Source: Longimicrobiales bacterium (GTDB taxonomy: Bacteria > Gemmatimonadota > Gemmatimonadetes > Longimicrobiales > Gaopeijiaceae). Taken from it: a stretch of 64,000 nucleotides of DNA. The notes beneath the pieces were generated by a model that made no database searches, had not been told where the DNA came from, and saw only the letters and a list, made by a program, of their open reading frames with translations. The first letter of the stretch is position 1, and each line of letters begins with the position of its first letter. Below, in pieces: positions 2,066 through 10,551 of this stretch. The stretch lies in contig OX639991.1 in the NCBI GenBank assembly GCA_951828585.1, positions 898,576 to 962,575 of the forward strand. The letters run 5' to 3'. The translations under genes were made by a program, and so were the position numbers.

Positions 2066-3264
2066 CGTCGGATCCTGAGCCGGGTCACGTACGGGGCGCC
2101 GGCGTCGTCCTCGCCCGCGAAGAGGAGGTAGTCCTCGGTCGCGTAGACCGTGCCGGGGTCGATCCGGACCGATTTCGGAACCGCCATCCGGCCCACGAAA
2201 AAGCCGTCGTCCCGGAATGCGTCGATGGCCGTGCCCGCGTCGACCCGCGAGGTTTCCGGAACCACGAACACCTGGCCGGCACCATCCACGAAGATGTTCA
2301 CGATCACCGGCTTCTTCTCGGGCAAGGTTCGCAGGTAGTCCGCCATCAATGCGGGGTTGGGCCGACGTTCGAATGGGGCTCGAACTTCGTCGCGGTCGGC
2401 TTCGTCGATGTCCGCCGGCGTGACTCCGTCGAGCGTGGCGATCAGCGTGGTGTCCCCCTCCAGGGAACGTCCGTACAACCGGTACTCCCCGCTAAGCGCG
2501 AACCAGATGTCGTCGTTGCAACCCAGGACACGACGGAGTTCCGGACCGAAGTAGACCGGCCGGCGCACGCCGACAGACGGCATGTCGGCCATCTGCTGCG
2601 TGAACTCCAGGTACGGCAGCGTGTCCTGCTTCGCTCCATCGGGCAACACGCGGATGGGATGGAAGTGGAGAAGGTCGATGTCGGACATGTCGCCGCTCTT
2701 CTCCTCCTTCGGGTAGCGCGTCCACCACTCCATGTAACTGCCGTCCCGCGCAATCGTGCAACGTTCCGTGCGCGCGCCTCCGCTGCTGGCCCCCCGGCGG
2801 ACCCGCGTCCCGATGAACGTACCGTCCGGGCCGAAGATCGAATAGCGCGGTGCCCGCTGGTCCGCGACCCACAGCGTGTCACCCGCCGCGATGGCGGGCC
2901 CCAGTGCGTCGCGGAACTCCCCGGGACCGTCTCCCTGTCCACCGAGCGTCCGCAGGAACTCGCCCTCTGGGTCGAAGACATGGATCTCCTGGGTCACGTA
3001 ATCGAGGATGTAGATGTTGTCCCGCGAATCGGCGGCGACGGCGACGACCATGCCGAGGTAGCCGCCGGGCGGGCCGGAAATGCGGAGGTCTTCTTCGAAA
3101 GTCCATTCGGCGGTGGTCTTCCAGGCCGACTCGAGCGCGTTCTCGACAAGGACCTGGGCGGCGGCCTCACGCAGCATGACGCCTGTGGCCAGGAGTGTCG
3201 CCAGGGCCGTCGCCAGCGGCGGGCATCGTGTGAGTCGCGCGTGCGCCGATGTGGGGTGAGGCAT
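2062..3264 (-). CDS. Secreted 6-bladed beta-propeller (NHL/TolB-like repeat) protein
   Basis: Internal ATG at 3264 confirmed in sequence, followed by signal-like 'LATALATLLATGVML'. Repeated 'DxxGNIYILD / GxGPGEF'-type blade motifs. The longer track ORF (to 3672) has an implausible Arg/Ser-rich leader. Confidence 0.65.
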   Translation of the reverse strand: MPHPTSAHARLTRCPPLATALATLLATGVMLREAAAQVLVENALESAWKTTAEWTFEEDLRISGPPGGYLGMVVAVAADSRDNIYILDYVTQEIHVFDPEGEFLRTLGGQGDGPGEFRDALGPAIAAGDTLWVADQRAPRYSIFGPDGTFIGTRVRRGASSGGARTERCTIARDGSYMEWWTRYPKEEKSGDMSDIDLLHFHPIRVLPDGAKQDTLPYLEFTQQMADMPSVGVRRPVYFGPELRRVLGCNDDIWFALSGEYRLYGRSLEGDTTLIATLDGVTPADIDEADRDEVRAPFERRPNPALMADYLRTLPEKKPVIVNIFVDGAGQVFVVPETSRVDAGTAIDAFRDDGFFVGRMAVPKSVRIDPGTVYATEDYLLFAGEDDAGAPYVTRLRIRR

Positions 3265-3583
3265 GGTCTTCCCGGGTTTGCTTGCATCCGTCAGAGGCCG
3301 GTAGCTGCTCTGTTCTCCCCGGAGACACGACCACGGCGGGAATGGTTGCAAGAGAGACAGCGGCGTCCGGCCCTGGGAAGTCCCGACGCGTTTGGCAGAA
3401 CTCATGCCTGCCACCGATCCGGAATTGCTTGTCAACCAGGCGCTGTACGAGCATTTTTTCCTGGAGGAGAGGCGTGGTGGAACCTCTGGACTACCCGCTG
3501 AGAACCTGGTAACAGCTCTGGTCGGAGTCGTCAGGGCTCGGACGCGGGATGACCTGGTGATGCGGCTGATCCGGTTGCACGAC

Positions 3584-3655
3584 CTATTGGGCAACGACCC
3601 CCGCCTCGATGAACGCCATGAACCCAAAGAGCCCGCCCCACGAATGGAATGGCCG
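3584..3655 (-). pseudogene. Orphan duplicate of the C-terminal end of the GH gene at 5103..6923
   Basis: Minus-strand translation 'PFHSWGGLFGFMAFIEAGVVAQ*' matches '..DPFHSWGGLFGFMAFIEGGYVGAPEEGLGG*' at the 3' end of the GH gene. No upstream GH coding sequence is attached. Confidence 0.7.
3599..3652. repeat. Direct repeat copy A (54 bp, 51/54 identical to 5139..5192)
   Basis: cc ccgcctcgatgaacgccatgaacccaaagagcccgccccacgaatggaatgg versus cc ccccctcgatgaacgccatgaacccgaagagcccgccccacgaatggaacgg. Three mismatches, at 3603, 3626 and 3650. Confidence 0.9.
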
Positions 3656-3728
3656 ACAAGGCACTTCACCACTTCGGTGAAGCAGATTATCGTACCCGTA
3701 CCATGGCCAACCTCCCCGTACCCTTCTG

Positions 3729-4454
3729 ATGGCCGAACTCCACCTTCCCGACGGTCCCGCGGAACTCCTTAAAGCCATCCGCAAGCCGCTTGCCCACCAC
3801 CTTGGCGGCGAACACCACATCCGTCTCGGTGGCGGCACCGCACTCGCCGCCCGGTGGGGGCACCGACATAGCACCGACGTCGATCTCTTCGTGGATTCCG
3901 AGCCCTACGCCGAGCTATATCGGAACTCCCAGCAATTCTGCACCAATATCGAACGACACACCGGTGCCGTCGAGCAACTGGGCGTTGGCCCCGGCTATAC
4001 TCTGATCGCGCTGCGGGACGGCGAGATCACCGTTCTCACCACACCTTCCCTTACTCGCCAACCCATCTCCAGCGACACCGTCCGAGGCACACGCATCGCC
4101 GTCGAATCCACCGCCGAAATACTCGCCAAGAAGCTGGCCCACCGCATGTCGGTCTATCACATCTTCGTCCCCCGCGATCTCTACGACATCGCCGTGGCCA
4201 GGCACTTCGATCCCGAAGCTCTCGACACCGCGATCGCAACGATTCCTCCACCGAACCTCGATGACATCCGCCAGCAGCTTGGCCTCCTCAGCCCAAGCTG
4301 GGCCGACGCACACCCTCAACCCCTCCTGCAACCTACGCATCCCGACGATGCCGCCGATTCCGTTGCCATCGTCCATCGGGTGATTGGACGCCACCTCGAC
4401 GGCAGAACCCCCCGCACGCCCAACCCCGACATCCCCCCTTCCCGCGACCGCTGA
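3729..4454 (+). CDS. Pol-beta-fold nucleotidyltransferase, AbiEii/DUF1814-like (putative type IV TA toxin family)
   Basis: ATG at 3729. Motif 'RLGGGTALAARWGHRHSTDVDLFV' fits G[GS]-x9-13-DxD of Pol-beta NTases and the 'GGTAL...R.S.DiDl' signature of AbiEii. 241 aa, lower GC than the flanks. Confidence 0.6.
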   Translation: MAELHLPDGPAELLKAIRKPLAHHLGGEHHIRLGGGTALAARWGHRHSTDVDLFVDSEPYAELYRNSQQFCTNIERHTGAVEQLGVGPGYTLIALRDGEITVLTTPSLTRQPISSDTVRGTRIAVESTAEILAKKLAHRMSVYHIFVPRDLYDIAVARHFDPEALDTAIATIPPPNLDDIRQQLGLLSPSWADAHPQPLLQPTHPDDAADSVAIVHRVIGRHLDGRTPRTPNPDIPPSRDR

Positions 4455-4458
4455 TACC

Positions 4459-5076
4459 ATGCTCGACTTCGCCAAGGTCCGCGCATTCTTTTTCGATCCC
4501 CCCGCGGACGACCCCGCGGGCATTTGCTCCCGCGAAGAAATCTACGCCCGCTACGAGCGCGAGCGCTTGGAACGTTGCCTTCTTCGGGGCGGCGACCCCG
4601 AGGCCGAAGGACTCGGTCCACATGGCTCCCTCATCGGTGGAGCCGACAAGCCGCTGACTCTTTTCCACGGCTTCCCCGAGCTTCGCGCCAAACTCCGTCC
4701 CCTGCCCCTCTCATGGTTCGACAACCCACGGGGCCACACCCGAATCATCCCACCGGCCGGCCTCGAGGAGGCGCACGCATTCTTCGCCTCGCTCTCCGGC
4801 GCCTACCTCGCCGGAATGCCCAACCGGCCTTCCGGCCGCCTTCTCCGCCGCTACTTTCGGTCTGCCGAACTCACCGGCCAGCCATGGTCCCAGGTCTGGC
4901 ACGTCTTTGCCTGCATCCATTCCTTCGACCTGCACCGCCTGCTTCCGCGCAGCGCGGTTTCACTCTACGAGATTGCCCGCGTCCTCCACATCACCGACAC
5001 TCGCCGCGCCGATGTCGTCAGCTGGATCAACCAATTCGGCCATCGGCCCATTCGGTCGGAGGAGGCCGGGGAGTGA
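4459..5076 (+). CDS. Hypothetical protein with a C-terminal HTH-like segment; partner of the NTase
   Basis: ATG at 4459, 4 nt after the NTase stop (TGA 4452-4454). C-terminal 'SLYEIARVLHITDTRRADVVSWINQFG' looks like helix-turn-helix. No family recognised. Confidence 0.5.
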   Translation: MLDFAKVRAFFFDPPADDPAGICSREEIYARYERERLERCLLRGGDPEAEGLGPHGSLIGGADKPLTLFHGFPELRAKLRPLPLSWFDNPRGHTRIIPPAGLEEAHAFFASLSGAYLAGMPNRPSGRLLRRYFRSAELTGQPWSQVWHVFACIHSFDLHRLLPRSAVSLYEIARVLHITDTRRADVVSWINQFGHRPIRSEEAGE

Positions 5077-5102
5077 CGCCACCCCGGTCGCTGGTCGAAA
5101 CG

Positions 5103-6923
5103 CTATCCCCCCAACCCTTCCTCCGGCGCCCCCACATACCCCCCCTCGATGAACGCCATGAACCCGAAGAGCCCGCCCCACGAATGGAACGGGTCGCTCG
5201 ACAGGCGCTCATCGTCTCCCGCCCCGGTGATCGAGGAGTAGTTCTCGCTCACGTACCCCTTCCGGCGCCACTCGGAGAGGAACATGTCGAGGGAACGCGC
5301 TGACAACTCGGTGGCCACGTCATACGCCCCCGCCCGCCGCAGTCCCAGATACGTGAGAAAGTTGAGCGGCGGCCAGATCGCGCTTTTCCAGTAGCGTTGC
5401 TGCGGGAACGACGGATCGTCCCGCGTGGTCGAAGGCAGCACGTAGTCTCCCCAGAACTCGGCCGGGTTGAGGAGGTGGTCGCGGATCATGCGCTCGGCGC
5501 GGTCCGCATCGGGGACATCGGCCAGGAGCGGGTAGAATAGGGTCGGCGAGCGTCGGCCCGAGGGCTGGTCCAGGTCCGTCCGGTAGTTCAGATAGTAGCC
5601 GCGCTCCTCCACCCACAGGCCGTCCAGCGCTTCCGTGAACTGGCGCGCCCGCTCCATCAGCTCCCCGGCCTCGGCGCCCCGTCCCAGTACCCCGGCCAGC
5701 TCCGCCAGAGCCAGACAATCCGCGATGTACAGGCTCGTCAGCCCCACATCCTGCAGCTCGAGCGTGTTCTTTTCGGGATTGAACGGCACATCCTCGTACA
5801 TCGGCGAGTCGTCCATCCCCGACTCGTAGCCCGCGGTTCGCCTGGTGCGCACGGCCGGTTCGTTGAAGGGATTCCGCGCCTCGTGCGACCCGTAGCTGAG
5901 CAGTCCCCCGTTCATCCGCTTCCGCGGCCACCACCGATTCCACTCCAGCAGCGGATCGAAGGCGGCCTCCAGAAACCACCGCTCCGGGTATCGCCGGTAC
6001 ACCTCGCGTACCATGATCCCCCCGACCGGCGGCTGCGAACGATCCCACGACTTGCTGCCGTTGCCGCGATTGTCGTTCGGGAGGAACCCTTCGGCGGTCG
6101 CGCCCCGCAGGTGCTCGATTACGTTGGCGATCGCCAACTCGCGATTGTCGAGCGAGGTCATGTAGGCCAGGAAAAAGTTGTCCCAGCCGAAGAGCGCCAC
6201 GCCGCCGTACTCCTGGTTCCAAAGTCGCCCTACGGTGGACACCACGCGGTCGTGGCGCGGTTCGTAGATCGTGTTCCAGGCGATGCCGGAGGTGACCGCC
6301 AGGTAGGCTTCGGCGAGGTCGCCGTATCCGTCCGCACGTTCCCGCAGCGACCCCTCGGCGGCATCGAGGGCGGCGCGGATCTCGTTCAGGTCACGCGGCA
6401 TCCCCGTCGACAAGCCCACCGGCCCGTCCAGACGCACGACCCGGTGCGCGAGCAGGGTCTCCGTGTAGGGATCCTGCTCTGCGGTGCCCACCACGTGAAT
6501 GGGATGCGTCGCCAAAGCGTGCCGCGCGACGAAACCGTCGTCGGACGACCTCACCGACCCCTCCCGGTTCCAGGCGAAACCAGCGCTCACAACCAGTTCG
6601 TAGTGGGCCGGTTTGTCCGCCACTTCAGGGTCATAGTGGCCGACAACGTCCGCGGGGGCCGGTTTGTCGGCCACTAAGGGGCCATTGTGGCCGACAACGG
6701 TCGGTTCGGCGGGTTTGTCCGCCACTTCCGGGCCATTGTGGCCGACAACAGCCGCGGGAGTCGAGTCGTGGGGCGTAACCAGAACCACCAACTCATCCCC
6801 CGCATGACCCGCCTCAACCGTCGCCGAGAGCCCCTGCCACTCGACGTCGAGCCGCATGTACGAACCGTCCAGGGCGTGGACACCGGGGCGGATCGCCGGC
6901 GGGATGGAAGCTGTCGCCAGCAT
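5103..6923 (-). CDS. (alpha/alpha)6-barrel glycoside hydrolase, GH63 / MGH1-like (glucosidase or mannosylglycerate-hydrolase-like)
   Basis: ATG at 6923. Motifs 'FGWDNFFLAYM', 'GFLPNDNRGNG..WDRSQPPVG', 'GYESGMDDSPMYED', 'YWKSAIWPPLNF' are typical of clan GH-G enzymes. The exact family is not certain. Confidence 0.7.
   Translation of the reverse strand: MLATASIPPAIRPGVHALDGSYMRLDVEWQGLSATVEAGHAGDELVVLVTPHDSTPAAVVGHNGPEVADKPAEPTVVGHNGPLVADKPAPADVVGHYDPEVADKPAHYELVVSAGFAWNREGSVRSSDDGFVARHALATHPIHVVGTAEQDPYTETLLAHRVVRLDGPVGLSTGMPRDLNEIRAALDAAEGSLRERADGYGDLAEAYLAVTSGIAWNTIYEPRHDRVVSTVGRLWNQEYGGVALFGWDNFFLAYMTSLDNRELAIANVIEHLRGATAEGFLPNDNRGNGSKSWDRSQPPVGGIMVREVYRRYPERWFLEAAFDPLLEWNRWWPRKRMNGGLLSYGSHEARNPFNEPAVRTRRTAGYESGMDDSPMYEDVPFNPEKNTLELQDVGLTSLYIADCLALAELAGVLGRGAEAGELMERARQFTEALDGLWVEERGYYLNYRTDLDQPSGRRSPTLFYPLLADVPDADRAERMIRDHLLNPAEFWGDYVLPSTTRDDPSFPQQRYWKSAIWPPLNFLTYLGLRRAGAYDVATELSARSLDMFLSEWRRKGYVSENYSSITGAGDDERLSSDPFHSWGGLFGFMAFIEGGYVGAPEEGLGG
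5139..5192. repeat. Direct repeat copy B (inside the 3' end of the GH gene)
   Basis: See copy A. The two copies are 1540 bp apart. Confidence 0.9.
6597..6749 (-). repeat. In-frame 3 x 51-bp tandem repeat within the GH gene N-terminal region
   Basis: Units 6699-6749, 6648-6698 and 6597-6647 encode VVGHNGPEVADKPAEPT / VVGHNGPLVADKPAPAD / VVGHYDPEVADKPAHYE. Confidence 0.9.
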
Positions 6924-7021
6924 TCAAGATTGGCGGGGCCAGAGAGCCGTTGGCAACACTCCGTGGCGCGGCCTATCCTTCAAGTCCTCCCGCGGCTCCC
7001 TCCCTCAACCGGGTTCCCCGA

Positions 7022-8551
7022 ATGTCCTTCCAACCCCTCGATATCGCGGCGTTCGTCGGCTTCCTCGCCCTGGTCGTCGGCATCTCGCTGTACGCGTCGC
7101 GCGGCAAGCACGACGCCGCCGACTACTTCCTGGCCGGCCGCAACCTGCCCTGGTGGCTGATCGGCTTCTCGCTGATCGCGTCCAACATCTCGACCGAGCA
7201 CTTCGTGGGGATGGCGGGCCGGGGATACGACCTGGGCCTCGCGATCGCAAGCTACGAATGGATGGCAGCGGTCACCCTCGTTCTGGTGGGACTCTTCTTC
7301 CTCCCGAGGTTCCTGCAGGCCGGCATCTACACGATCCCCGAGTACCTCGAGTTCCGCTACGACGTGCGGACCCGCACACTCATGGCCGCGTTCATCATGG
7401 CGGCGTATGTCTTCGTGGCGCTCGCAACCGTGCTCTACTCCGGGGCGCTCGCGCTGGAATCGATCTTCGGAATCGACCTGAACCTGGGCATCTGGCTGAT
7501 CGGAATTCTGGCCGGGGGGTACACGATCTACGGGGGGCTGAAGGCGGTGGTGTGGTCCGACCTGATCCAGGGTGTGGCCCTGCTGCTGGGCGGGGTGGTG
7601 GTGACGGTGCTGGGCTTCAAGGCGATCGGCGGTATCGAGCCTTTCCTCGAGGTCGCCGACGGCAAGCTGCACACCGTGCTTCCCTGGAATCATCCGGAGA
7701 TGCCGTGGCTGGCGGTGTTCGTGGGCGGTCTGTGGATCCCGAACCTCTTCTACTGGGGACTGAACCAGTTCATCACGCAGAGGACGCTCGCGGCGCGGAG
7801 CCTGGCCGACGGGCAGCGGGGGATCTTCCTCGCGGGTTTCATCAAGCTGGCGATTCCGTTCATCATCGTCTTCCCGGGGATCATGGCGGCCGAACTCTTC
7901 GCCGATCAGGTGACCAATCCCGATCAGGCCTATCCGGTCATGATGCGGGAACTGCTCCCCGCGGGGCTGACCGGCGCGATGTTCGCGGCGCTCTTCGGCG
8001 CGGTGATGAGCTCGCTCGACTCGATGCTCAACTCGGCCGCGACGATCTTCAGCGTGGACCTGTACAAGCGGCATATGCGGCCGGAGGCGTCGTCGCCCAG
8101 GCTCATGGTGGTGGGGCGCTGGACGACCGCGGTGCTCGTGCTGGTCGGATGTCTGTGGGCACCGCTGGTGGCGAAGGCGGGCAGCGTATTCGACTACATC
8201 CAGATATTCTGGGGGTTCATCTCGCCGGGAATCGTGGCGGCGTTCTTGTTCGGGCTGTTCGTGCCGCGGACGCCGCCGGTCGCCGCCTTCGGGGGGATGA
8301 TTCTGGGGATTCCGGTGTACGGGCTGCTGTTGTGGCTGCTGCCCGAGGTCGCGTTCCTGCATCACATGGCGATCACGTTCCTGGTGATCTCGGCGTACAT
8401 GGCCACCCTAACGTTACGTCAGGGTTTGGATGAGCCGAGGAGGCTGCCGCGGTCGGCGGCGCATGTGGATCTGACGCCGGCGCCGGGGGCGAAGTGGTGG
8501 GCGAGTGGGGTGATCGGGGGGGCGGCGGTGTTGTATGTGATCTTCTGGTAG
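7022..8551 (+). CDS. Sodium:solute symporter family (SSF/SGLT-like) sugar transporter
   Basis: ATG at 7022. 'ADYFLAGRNLPWWLIGFSLIASNISTEHFVGMAG' is the canonical SSF N-terminal signature. Multi-TM throughout. Divergent from the GH gene. Confidence 0.9.
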   Translation: MSFQPLDIAAFVGFLALVVGISLYASRGKHDAADYFLAGRNLPWWLIGFSLIASNISTEHFVGMAGRGYDLGLAIASYEWMAAVTLVLVGLFFLPRFLQAGIYTIPEYLEFRYDVRTRTLMAAFIMAAYVFVALATVLYSGALALESIFGIDLNLGIWLIGILAGGYTIYGGLKAVVWSDLIQGVALLLGGVVVTVLGFKAIGGIEPFLEVADGKLHTVLPWNHPEMPWLAVFVGGLWIPNLFYWGLNQFITQRTLAARSLADGQRGIFLAGFIKLAIPFIIVFPGIMAAELFADQVTNPDQAYPVMMRELLPAGLTGAMFAALFGAVMSSLDSMLNSAATIFSVDLYKRHMRPEASSPRLMVVGRWTTAVLVLVGCLWAPLVAKAGSVFDYIQIFWGFISPGIVAAFLFGLFVPRTPPVAAFGGMILGIPVYGLLLWLLPEVAFLHHMAITFLVISAYMATLTLRQGLDEPRRLPRSAAHVDLTPAPGAKWWASGVIGGAAVLYVIFW

Positions 8552-9909: not shown

Positions 9910-10551
9910 CTACCCGCGATTCCCCGGCGGGCGGTGGACGCGCGGGGGCGGGACGAAGTTGGCGAGGCACTCCAGGAGCTCGAGAGGCGTGAGCGCCAAC
10001 TCGGTGCGACCGTTGATGCCGGGTTTCGGGAAGCGGTACAGGAGCCGGCATTCGGGTGACTCGAGAGGAGGAGTGGAGTCGAGGGCGTGTAGTCGTTCGA
10101 GGGCGAAGGGCGGGCGAGCGCAGTATCGGACGAGGCGCTCGATGCCCGCTCGGTCCTCGCCCTCGATGCGCACCGACGCGTCGACGCTGAACCCGCCGGA
10201 GCCTTGCCAGGCGAGCATGCCGGCCGCGTCGAAGTCGTCGAGAAGGTCGTGGCGGCGAAAGTATCGAAGGACTCGGGCGCGGAGGGTGGTTTCGAGATGA
10301 CGGATGCGATCGGACGTCAGCTCGGAGGCTTCGTGGAAGTCGGCCTTACCGTCCTTGGCCTCACCGAACACGCCGTCGAGGACGATGAGGTGGTAGTGAG
10401 GGTGGACGTTGAGGGAAGAACCGAAGCGGTGAAGGAAGCTGACGGCTCCGGGCTGGGCGTCAGGGGGTGCTCGGGGGCTGCGGGGTAGCCTTCCGCGACC
10501 GGCGCGGATCCGAAGGGCGGGGGCGAAGGCGCGGCACCCGTGTGCCCGCAA
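9910..10551 (-). pseudogene. IS91-family (Y2/HUH) transposase remnant
   Basis: 'FLHRFGSSLNVHPHYHLIVLDGVF' is the HUH motif region, and 'RLVRYCARPPFALERL' is also IS91-like. Homology stops at '..PPPRVHR', before the catalytic Tyr pair. No N-terminal zinc domain. Confidence 0.7.

Follow-up and report, generated by a model that had tools for sequence, protein, structure and literature searches.

Two adjoining open reading frames (ORFs) in the genome of a Longimicrobiales bacterium (Gemmatimonadota; contig OX639991.1, positions 898,576 to 962,575) are enclosed by direct repeats that copy the 3′ region of the neighboring glycoside hydrolase (GH) gene. The arrangement poses the question of whether the repeats are the attachment (att) sites of a mobile element or the trace of another kind of recombination, and what role the enclosed genes play. 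Comparison of the locus among related genomes, together with the family assignment of the first encoded protein, leads us to favor, with moderate confidence, a reading in which the pair constitutes an accessory toxin-antitoxin (TA)-like module that is exchanged through recombination, homologous or illegitimate, and in which the repeats are the scar of such an exchange rather than att sites. Coordinates given without a locus label are positions in the complete 64,000-nt stretch, hereafter the window, while L-numbers are labels of loci from related genomes.

The repeats and the slot in related genomes

The two repeat copies, A and B (Table 1), are identical at 51 of 54 positions and spaced 1540 bp apart, and local alignment of the flank upstream of ORF1 with that downstream of ORF2 gives a score of 94 (z = 33 against shuffles). 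Both the repeats and the two forward-strand ORFs between them, separated by a 4-nt gap, are as reported in the preliminary description, which was made from the sequence alone. The G+C content of the ORFs, there called visibly lower, differs marginally overall (0.639 and 0.657 for ORF1 and ORF2, respectively, against 0.668 for the GH gene), the contrast being clearer at the third positions of codons (0.73-0.78 for the ORFs, 0.84 for the GH gene).

On the minus strand, copy B reads ...DPFHSWGGLFGFMAFIEGGYVGAPEEGLGG up to the stop codon within the GH ORF, and copy A reads ...PFHSWGGLFGFMAFIEAGVVAQ up to a stop codon, i.e. PFHSWGGLFGFMAFIEAG continuing to VVAQ. Copy A furthermore matches the GH end of L009 at 50 of 51 positions, and is collinear both with the genuine GH end of L088 and with the GH stubs found in L081 and L087. 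While both copies do represent the C-terminal region of the GH, as first proposed, the last five codons of the copy A stub (GVVAQ) do not. The stub adjoins the remnant of an Rpn-family gene, which shares 90.5% nucleotide identity over 242 nt with the L081 gene (blastn), 90.9% with the L087 gene, and 88.8% amino acid identity over 80 residues with the L081 protein (tblastn; E = 1e-39). The intact Rpn orthologs of L081 and L087 match PF04754, as well as the TIGR01784 Rpn family, whereas both the 5′ and 3′ parts of the window copy are deleted, leaving a dead fragment. The second (3′) deletion placed residue 198 against the stub, and GVVAQ with its stop is therefore antisense Rpn sequence. Two other explanations of this region were discarded: positions 3392-3600 were considered as the relic of a second ORF1 copy, as both start with MAEL, but correspond to the Rpn/Transposase_31 fragment, while the 311 nt at 3351-3661 are not a window-specific insertion, as L081 and L087 share the structure with an intact Rpn gene.

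The GH tail following copy B, GGYVGAPEEGLGG (...GAPEEGLGG), is also present in cassette-free relatives, and more than 100 GH homologs end in a comparable manner (...FIEAGHLGAPEGGLGG, ...AGYVGAPEDGVGG and ...LAPPEDPLP; 120 C-termini compared). Judged from these sequences, the tail is the native, family-wide end of the enzyme, and the suggestion that the insert supplies a replacement C-terminus has to be abandoned; the 120 homolog C-termini likewise rule out FIEAGVVAQ as the ancestral GH end.

The interpretation of the repeats is decided by comparison of the slot between the GH stop codon and a block comprising DUF5128 and extracytoplasmic function (ECF) sigma factor genes in syntenic relatives. 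The slot is empty in L084, L085 and L086 (GH 77-84% identical), where the GH stop lies beside the DUF5128/ECF-sigma block, and the empty junction of L084 corresponds to 3350|5100 of the window. These junctions indicate that the cassette was inserted downstream of a complete GH gene, and not within its coding end. L009, L010, L011 and L083 (~80-90% nucleotide identity) carry the cassette with its ~65-nt leader, but no left repeat and no Rpn gene. The flanks of L081/L082, L087 and L088 are 92-95% identical to those of the window, and all of these loci harbor an Rpn-family gene in the slot. The order in L081 is DUF5128, intact Rpn gene, GH stub, cassette and GH gene, and L082 is organized likewise. 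L087 shows the L081 order, with a cassette 95% identical in nucleotide sequence to that of the window and a 73-nt stub, the right end of which is identical to the window's. Finally, L088 has no cassette; its Rpn gene, truncated at the 5′ end, abuts the GH stop, and the GH end is present only once. As a separate observation, the GH gene is absent altogether from L011 (=L002) and L083, where an SSF transporter gene directly follows the cassette.

The repeats bracket a presence/absence polymorphism, and L088 represents the cassette-free relative with a single repeat copy that had been sought as the empty site, although it ends in the native GH tail and not, as anticipated, in FIEAGVVAQ. The pair is also accessory rather than part of a syntenic core, being absent from L084, L085, L086 and L088 and present in multiple copies and many contexts elsewhere. 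The Rpn-to-stub run of L081 is collinear with the Rpn-to-GH-end run of L088, including the joint GACGTCAGATCCCCCC. The L081 stub begins 10 nt after the Rpn stop, and the present stub length in L081/L082 is ~76-90 nt. By comparison with L088, the original duplicated segment starts at the GH stop. It measured ~117 nt in L081, and ~90-105 nt in both L087 and the window, before it was trimmed by deletions of 28 nt (L081), 58 nt (L087) and >400 nt (window). There is possible microhomology at the joint between stub and leader. When set against the GH consensus, the stubs of the window and of L081 have no derived changes in common, indicating that the duplication arose shortly before these lineages split, and well after a cassette first arrived.

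Two cassette alleles occupy the slot. Type I is found in L081, L009, L010 and L011 (mutual identity 83-86% for ORF1 and 80-91% for ORF2), and type II in the window, L083 and L087 (window against L083: 86% for ORF1, 90% for ORF2), while identity between the types drops to 52% for ORF1 and 59-67% for ORF2 (59% between the window and L081). Comparison of these two loci places the divergent block (52-78% identity) at approximately 3653-5102, bounded by the right edge of copy A and by the GH stop, within flanks that are 92-98% identical. The window-type cassette is nearer to cassettes in other contexts, namely those of L004, L001, L005 and L070 (ORF1 69-73%). A divergent cassette within near-identical flanks, with nearer relatives in other contexts, indicates that the slot has swapped its occupant by recombination. 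The locus as such presents a natural series of states, namely empty, cassette alone, Rpn alone, and Rpn with a cassette and flank duplication, with two alleles, which shows how the genomes of uncultivated symbionts can exchange small accessory modules in the absence of a resident recombinase.

Table 1. Features at the cassette locus of the window, and tyrosine recombinase genes at loci of the same family.
Feature	Position	Strand	Basis or remark
Rpn-family (Transposase_31, YhgA-like) gene remnant	3357..3598	+	Residues 119-198 of the 333-aa L081 protein
Repeat copy A	3599..3652	-	Orphan fragment of the GH 3′ region, remnant of a longer duplicate
Junction (3653-3661) and ~65-nt leader upstream of ORF1	3653..3728	+	Alignment of six syntenic loci
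ORF1, AbiEii/DUF1814-family nucleotidyltransferase, putative toxin	3729..4454 (241 aa)	+	PF08843
ORF2, unannotated all-helical protein with C-terminal helix-turn-helix, putative antitoxin and autoregulator	4459..5076 (205 aa)	+	
Spacer, ORF2 stop to GH stop	5077..5102 (26 nt)	.	Locus-typical, like the L010 spacer (alignment)
MGH1-like/trehalase/GH63-type glycoside hydrolase	5103..6923 (606 codons)	-	PF22422, E = 7e-46
Repeat copy B	5139..5192	-	Within the GH gene, 36 nt upstream of the GH stop codon
Recombinase, L008	3251-4270		
Recombinase, L047	2680-3645		
Recombinase, L051	3302-4267		
Recombinase, L055	3059-4270		
Recombinase, L056	3252-4268		
Recombinase, L061	3254-4270		
Recombinase, L062	6131-7321		
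Recombinase, L066	6890-7834		

The leader is common to all cassettes at the GH slot (84-85% identity to L009, L010 and L011), and a short ORF upstream of ORF1 in the window ends in a stop codon that overlaps the ORF1 start (TGATG). Read directly from the sequence, the leader contains a 7-bp inverted repeat at 3664-3682 (CTTCACC-ACTTC-GGTGAAG, with an N5 spacer), which is a candidate operator. It is kept in L083 and L087, the alleles of which are of the window type, and is not conserved in the other type (L009, L081). A promoter and terminator scan of 3250-5250 returned nothing beyond shuffle expectation, and the window contains no tRNA.

The GH gene, which the preliminary description took to be intact, is so at its 3′ end only; at the truncated 5′ end, the first 120 codons are missing by comparison with the 90%-identical ortholog P0074 (residue 11 aligns to P0074 residue 121). 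Here, 29 nt (6895-6923) replace ~416 nt of L081/L087/L088, including the divergent promoter region between the GH and SSF genes, and the window GH may be a pseudogene or use a new start. In the region encoding the GH N-terminus (6605-6758), a 51-nt unit (17 aa, VVGHNGPEVADKPAxPx) occurs three times in tandem; P0074 has a single copy, so that copy number is strain-variable. A Y2_Tnp domain ORF (9910-10551, minus strand; PF04986, E = 2e-25), representing an IS91-family-type transposase fragment, lies ~5 kb from the cassette.

Origin of the repeats

On the reading we favor, the repeats would be the trimmed remains of a duplication of ~90-117 bp of the GH end, arising when cassette-bearing DNA recombined with a cassette-free locus in which an Rpn gene abutted the GH gene, the variable slot also having received this Rpn-family nuclease gene. 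A circle carrying the cassette and the GH end may have integrated by a single crossover into an L088-like chromosome, or a linear fragment may have been anchored by GH homology, with an illegitimate joint on its other side. Either route would yield the order Rpn flank, GH-end copy, leader, ORF1, ORF2, spacer, GH end and GH body. A reverse crossover between the repeat copies would regenerate the L088 arrangement, such that the scar could also mediate loss of the cassette; L088 may be either the state before insertion or that after excision, and types I and II may stem from either one event or two.

These features resemble Campbell-type or homology-facilitated illegitimate insertions, where recipient sequence is directly duplicated over a variable length, a relative retains the single-copy state, and one flank is homologous while the other joint shows at most microhomology. 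They differ in that the same side is duplicated here in every clear case. The repeats had originally been read as attL and attR; however, their length varies among the syntenic loci (54 nt in the window, 73 nt in L087 and ~90-117 nt in L081), and the cassettes of L009, L010, L011 and L083 have no left repeat.

The stub always directly follows the Rpn gene, is restricted to genomes with Rpn at the locus, and is lacking from cassette-bearing genomes without it. Members of the Rpn family are nucleases, and promote recombination independently of RecA (PMC5350276); the remnant beside copy A belongs to this family (YhgA-like, Transposase_31), intact members of which occupy the same position in L081, L082 and L087. 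It is conceivable, though we consider it unlikely, that the repeat is filler DNA, templated nearby when Rpn was inserted beside a resident cassette, with the L088 cassette being lost by an unrelated deletion. The L088 run is collinear with that of L081 across the GACGTCAGATCCCCCC joint, as a crossover between the repeats or a pre-insertion state predicts, while an unrelated deletion would need to strike both repeat copies in register. The Rpn gene, as such, is a neighbor outside of the two-gene cassette, and perhaps the cause of the scar.

The nucleotidyltransferase and its partner protein

The assignment of ORF1 to the AbiEii/DUF1814 nucleotidyltransferase (NTase) family, first proposed from its Pol-beta signature, is upheld by a profile search, in which residues 26-168 match PF08843 (AbiEii; E = 1e-11; 45.7 bits against a cut-off of 22.5). 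Matches to the PADLOC AbiEii models are weak (E >= 2.6e-4) and the NCBIfam search gave no match, and ORF1 thus appears to be a divergent branch of the AbiEii family. No Pfam match to NTP_transf_2 or HEPN was obtained, and an exact look-up of ORF1 in a contig index returned no match. Residues G34, R46, S48, D50, K135, D150 and D153 are invariant in 39 homologs from related loci, G35, G36, D52 and R139 are nearly invariant, and Y152 is invariant or nearly so. The catalytic motifs I-IV (hGG..., R..DxD, K-L-x-A..R and D) are present, and mutation of these motifs abolishes AbiEii toxicity in Streptococcus agalactiae (PMC3985639).

ORF2, described as lacking a recognizable family but having a helix-turn-helix (HTH)-like C-terminus, was found to have both properties. 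No Pfam, PADLOC or NCBIfam match was obtained for the protein, and its 73 homologs (~200 aa) likewise have no domain match. At E <= 1e-3, it matches only 208 clusters among 1.84 billion representative proteins, some of which are shorter proteins that match its C-terminal half alone and belong to no Pfam family, and it is absent from the plasmid, phage and IMG/VR collections searched. The AlphaFold2 model, built with 40 sequences, is all-helical (predicted local distance difference test, pLDDT, 91.8; predicted template modeling score, pTM, 0.81), and contains a terminal HTH at residues 169-191. Foldseek comparison of this model with the PDB and BFVD gave nothing at E < 2, and nothing meaningful was found in a PDB profile search with the ORF2 family. 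On the basis of the model, ORF2 represents a small family with a confidently predicted fold that matches nothing in the PDB or BFVD. A Gly-rich N-terminal motif, GPHGSLIGG, as well as PLPLSWF, are conserved among its members.

The pair resembles AbiE systems in its PF08843/DUF1814 NTase with the motif I-IV residues, the tightly coupled bicistronic operon, the HTH-containing partner and the leader inverted repeat. However, ORF2 is not a COG5340/AbiEi protein, and neither it nor the upstream ORF matches AbiEi models in Pfam, PADLOC or NCBIfam. Furthermore, the AbiE antitoxin is encoded upstream and has an N-terminal winged HTH, whereas the partner here is encoded downstream and has a C-terminal HTH. 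The gene order, with the NTase first and its partner second, is indeed the reverse of the canonical AbiEi-AbiEii arrangement, as previously stated; a regulator-first order is the rule for AbiE (PMC3985639), but some NTases of the DUF1814 superfamily are encoded upstream of regulators (PMC11375011), making the order observed here unusual rather than unprecedented. With the MenAT systems of Mycobacterium tuberculosis, the pair shares a DUF1814-type NTase, which in those systems is combined with diverse, unrelated antitoxins. ORF1 has a serine (S48) two residues before the first catalytic aspartate and an arginine two residues further upstream, as do R76 and S78 of MenT3. In MenT3, antitoxin-induced auto-phosphorylation at R76/S78 inactivates the toxin (PMC11375011), and the invariant S48 of the ORF1 motif R46-x-S48-x-D50-x-D52 mirrors this arrangement. 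The systems differ in antitoxin family and gene order, and ORF1 shows no detectable sequence match to the solved MenT chains.

By analogy with its family, ORF1 may be an AbiEii/MenT-type toxin that would arrest growth by nucleotidylating the acceptor (3′) ends of tRNA, thereby blocking translation. ORF2 would most likely neutralize it by binding, or by inducing auto-phosphorylation of S48, two residues before D50, while its HTH probably represses the operon through the leader inverted repeat. Should the pair indeed function in this way, as a TA or abortive-infection module, the antitoxins of the AbiE and MenAT NTase toxins would be joined by a new family, that of ORF2, distinguished by its unmatched predicted fold, C-terminal HTH and reverse gene order, and the module would provide a further test of the generality of antitoxin-induced auto-phosphorylation at a conserved serine.

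Other roles for the pair are, in our estimation, improbable. ORF1 could be a modifying antitoxin that acts on ORF2, in the manner of the type VII MNT-HEPN systems, or the pair as a whole could form a non-toxic regulator/enzyme unit or a sensor/effector unit in phage defense, and not a classical TA system. The NTase gene also comes first in the type VII MntA-HepT system, which the order observed here fits, while it does not fit that of AbiE, and the strong conservation of the GPHGSLIGG motif suggests a role for ORF2 beyond passive binding. ORF2 also exists as orphan copies and in ORF1-ORF2-ORF2 arrays. However, ORF1 matches AbiEii rather than the minimal-NTase families and retains all of the AbiEii toxicity motifs, and no HEPN domain was found in ORF2, the model of which matches no PDB chain, HEPN proteins included. 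The type VII combination of a minimal NTase and a HEPN RNase with an Rx4-6H motif has no Pfam or fold counterpart here.

The cassette family and its recombinases

A survey in which one genome per species was scanned returned 77 distinct loci, so that the same cassette, which the preliminary description had proposed to look for at other loci, is found in several phyla. The genomes belong to Longimicrobiales/Gemmatimonadota, Acidobacteriota (Bryobacterales, Vicinamibacteria), Gammaproteobacteria (Pseudomonadales, Azotimanducaceae) and Caldilineaceae, and the names of many of the metagenome-assembled genomes (RHO, SB06xx, COS, Palauibacter, Plut) are presumably those of sponge or coral microbiome bins. 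ORF1 precedes ORF2 in nearly all of the ~77 loci, and several genomes harbor three to five copies of the cassette. Arrays of divergent copies occur as ORF1-ORF2-ORF1-ORF2 (L020, L043) and ORF1-ORF2-ORF2 (L025, L031, L032, L047, L057), while in L030 the pair is followed by the 5′ fragment of another ORF1. These arrays, with orphan second ORF2 genes and the stubs of neighboring cassettes, suggest repeated recombination between cassettes.

Among cassettes in different contexts, homology starts 3-6 nt before the ORF1 start and stops near the ORF2 stop, and no conserved non-coding sequence was found at the cassette ends (57 ORF1 starts, 81 ORF2 stops). The start codon of many ORF1 copies is embedded in the sequence CTGATGGC, in which it overlaps the stop codon of an ORF located upstream. 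One-sided flank duplications also occur elsewhere, with unrelated sequences and lengths of 41-298 nt, while ~40 loci have none (gapped alignments). The L001 duplication (~50 nt) includes the start codon of a downstream thioesterase gene, that of L022 (~290 nt) the first 23 codons of the downstream gene, and that of L054 (41 nt) ends at an ATG. The duplicated flank is that downstream of ORF2 in all four clear cases (the window clade, L001, L022 and L054). The variable length, unrelated sequence and frequent absence of these duplications argue against both a transposase target duplication and a fixed att core.

The preliminary description reported neither integrase nor transposase. There is indeed no tyrosine recombinase between the repeats or elsewhere in the window, and a profile of the integrase 3′ end (nhmmer) detected no relic in the window leader, but the Transposase_31 remnant adjoins copy A, and at the level of the family the statement does not hold. 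A tyrosine recombinase gene is located upstream of a complete ORF1-ORF2 pair in six loci (L008, L047, L051, L055, L056 and L061; Table 1), and its TGA overlaps the ORF1 ATG (TGATG) in eight, forming an apparent recombinase-ORF1-ORF2 operon. The recombinase (320-400 aa) has a Phage_integrase domain and an N-terminal SAM-like domain, and ends in ...TTQLYDRRSRSVSRNIVERISV before the stop codon. A further recombinase gene lies downstream of the pair in L062 and L066, overlapping a further, degraded ORF1 copy. Upstream of ORF1, loci L007, L015, L020, L042, L050 and L080 retain relics of the recombinase 3′ end, and L068 has a frameshifted recombinase gene upstream of ORF2 fragments. Approximately one quarter of the complete ORF1 copies are translationally coupled to an upstream tyrosine recombinase or its relic. 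No repeats were found to flank the recombinase-ORF1-ORF2 units. They are comparable to the genomic islets that combine a tyrosine recombinase with TA genes, but have no att repeats around them, while the window has no recombinase; the three genes furthermore appear to be co-translated, which is unusual for island integrases.

A tentative possibility, to which we give limited credence, is that recombinase-ORF1-ORF2 constitutes an undescribed family of small tyrosine recombinase-linked modules, with the NTase and HTH protein as addiction or defense cargo or as accessory factors of the recombinase. Such a family would be spread across Gemmatimonadota, Acidobacteriota, Gammaproteobacteria and Chloroflexota in apparent sponge and coral communities, with recombinase-free copies moving as circles or fragments with a captured downstream flank, which would explain the variable-length, one-sided duplications. 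That the window cassette itself is a minimal site-specific integrative element, with attL and attR produced by a recombinase that was supplied in trans or lost and that targets the GH 3′ end, is the least probable of the explanations weighed: the repeats do bracket the cassette, L088 shows the single-copy, cassette-free state, the duplicated flank is on the ORF2 side in every clear case, and ORF1 is coupled to a recombinase in six loci, with degraded ORF1 so linked in L062/L066 and relics in ~6 more, but the window has neither a recombinase nor a detectable leader relic, repeats at other loci are unrelated in sequence, range from 41 to ~290 nt and are lacking at ~40 loci, the recombinase-linked units have no flanking repeats, nothing non-coding is conserved at the ends of the cassettes, and the syntenic L009, L010, L011 and L083 have no left repeat, with the GH tail being native.

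Exchange of a TA-like module by homologous or illegitimate recombination thus remains the explanation we prefer, but several observations weigh against it. The stubs end at different GH positions (~117 for type I and ~90-105 for type II), a difference that calls either for two illegitimate events very close to each other or for subsequent deletions. Duplication of the same side in four of four cases is not predicted by random illegitimate recombination, and hints at directionality, while the ORF1-linked recombinases in relatives leave room for a site-specific step in the history of the family. As regards function, a PDB profile search with the ORF1 family returned no MenT or AbiEii chain at E <= 1, so that the equivalences of ORF1 residues derive from the motif pattern. 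While the anatomy of the locus, the assignment of ORF1 to its family, the states observed in relatives and the presence of two alleles are established, we infer toxicity and the mode of neutralization from family membership and anatomy, and the exact route of recombination is likewise inferred.

Other classes of element were considered and rejected. A fixed target-site duplication (27 or 54 nt) is incompatible with lengths of 41-298 nt and with the ~40 loci that have none, and a transposon or insertion sequence, which would have terminal inverted repeats and a short target duplication of fixed length, with the lack of any conserved non-coding sequence at the cassette ends and with duplications of 41 to ~290 nt. 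An integron gene cassette is not indicated, as nothing is conserved after the ORF2 stop (no dedicated attC model was run) and the recombinase is co-directional and coupled rather than divergent.

Additional features can be observed at individual loci of the family. One or two small paralogous ORFs are located directly upstream of the recombinase in L056 (2788-3306), L055 (2471-3111) and L047 (2426-2683). They encode proteins of ~77-134 aa with the core MAYTLDTAAATERI...LFAALRLTG and probably a C-terminal membrane anchor, and consecutive genes overlap or almost touch at their stops and starts. At approximately 1900-7900 of L022, the ~290-nt segment recurs between successive NTase-type genes, namely a DUF6036/AbiEii-like ORF (3018-3848), the cassette and an ORF coding for a 442-aa AbiEii-domain protein (5833-7161); the copy with the first 23 codons of the downstream gene is that located upstream of the cassette. 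A 152-nt repeat (3734-3886 and 5665-5815; 93% identical) surrounds a cassette with an interrupted ORF1 in L034, and contains a hairpin (GGAATACCGGGTGTATTCC), such that it may represent an element dispersed among intergenic regions, and not a duplicated flank. Approximately three tandem 21-nt units (GGAAAACGTCGT...) are found in L001 (4961-5020), just upstream of the start of an M28 peptidase gene and ~200 nt upstream of the left repeat of the cassette.

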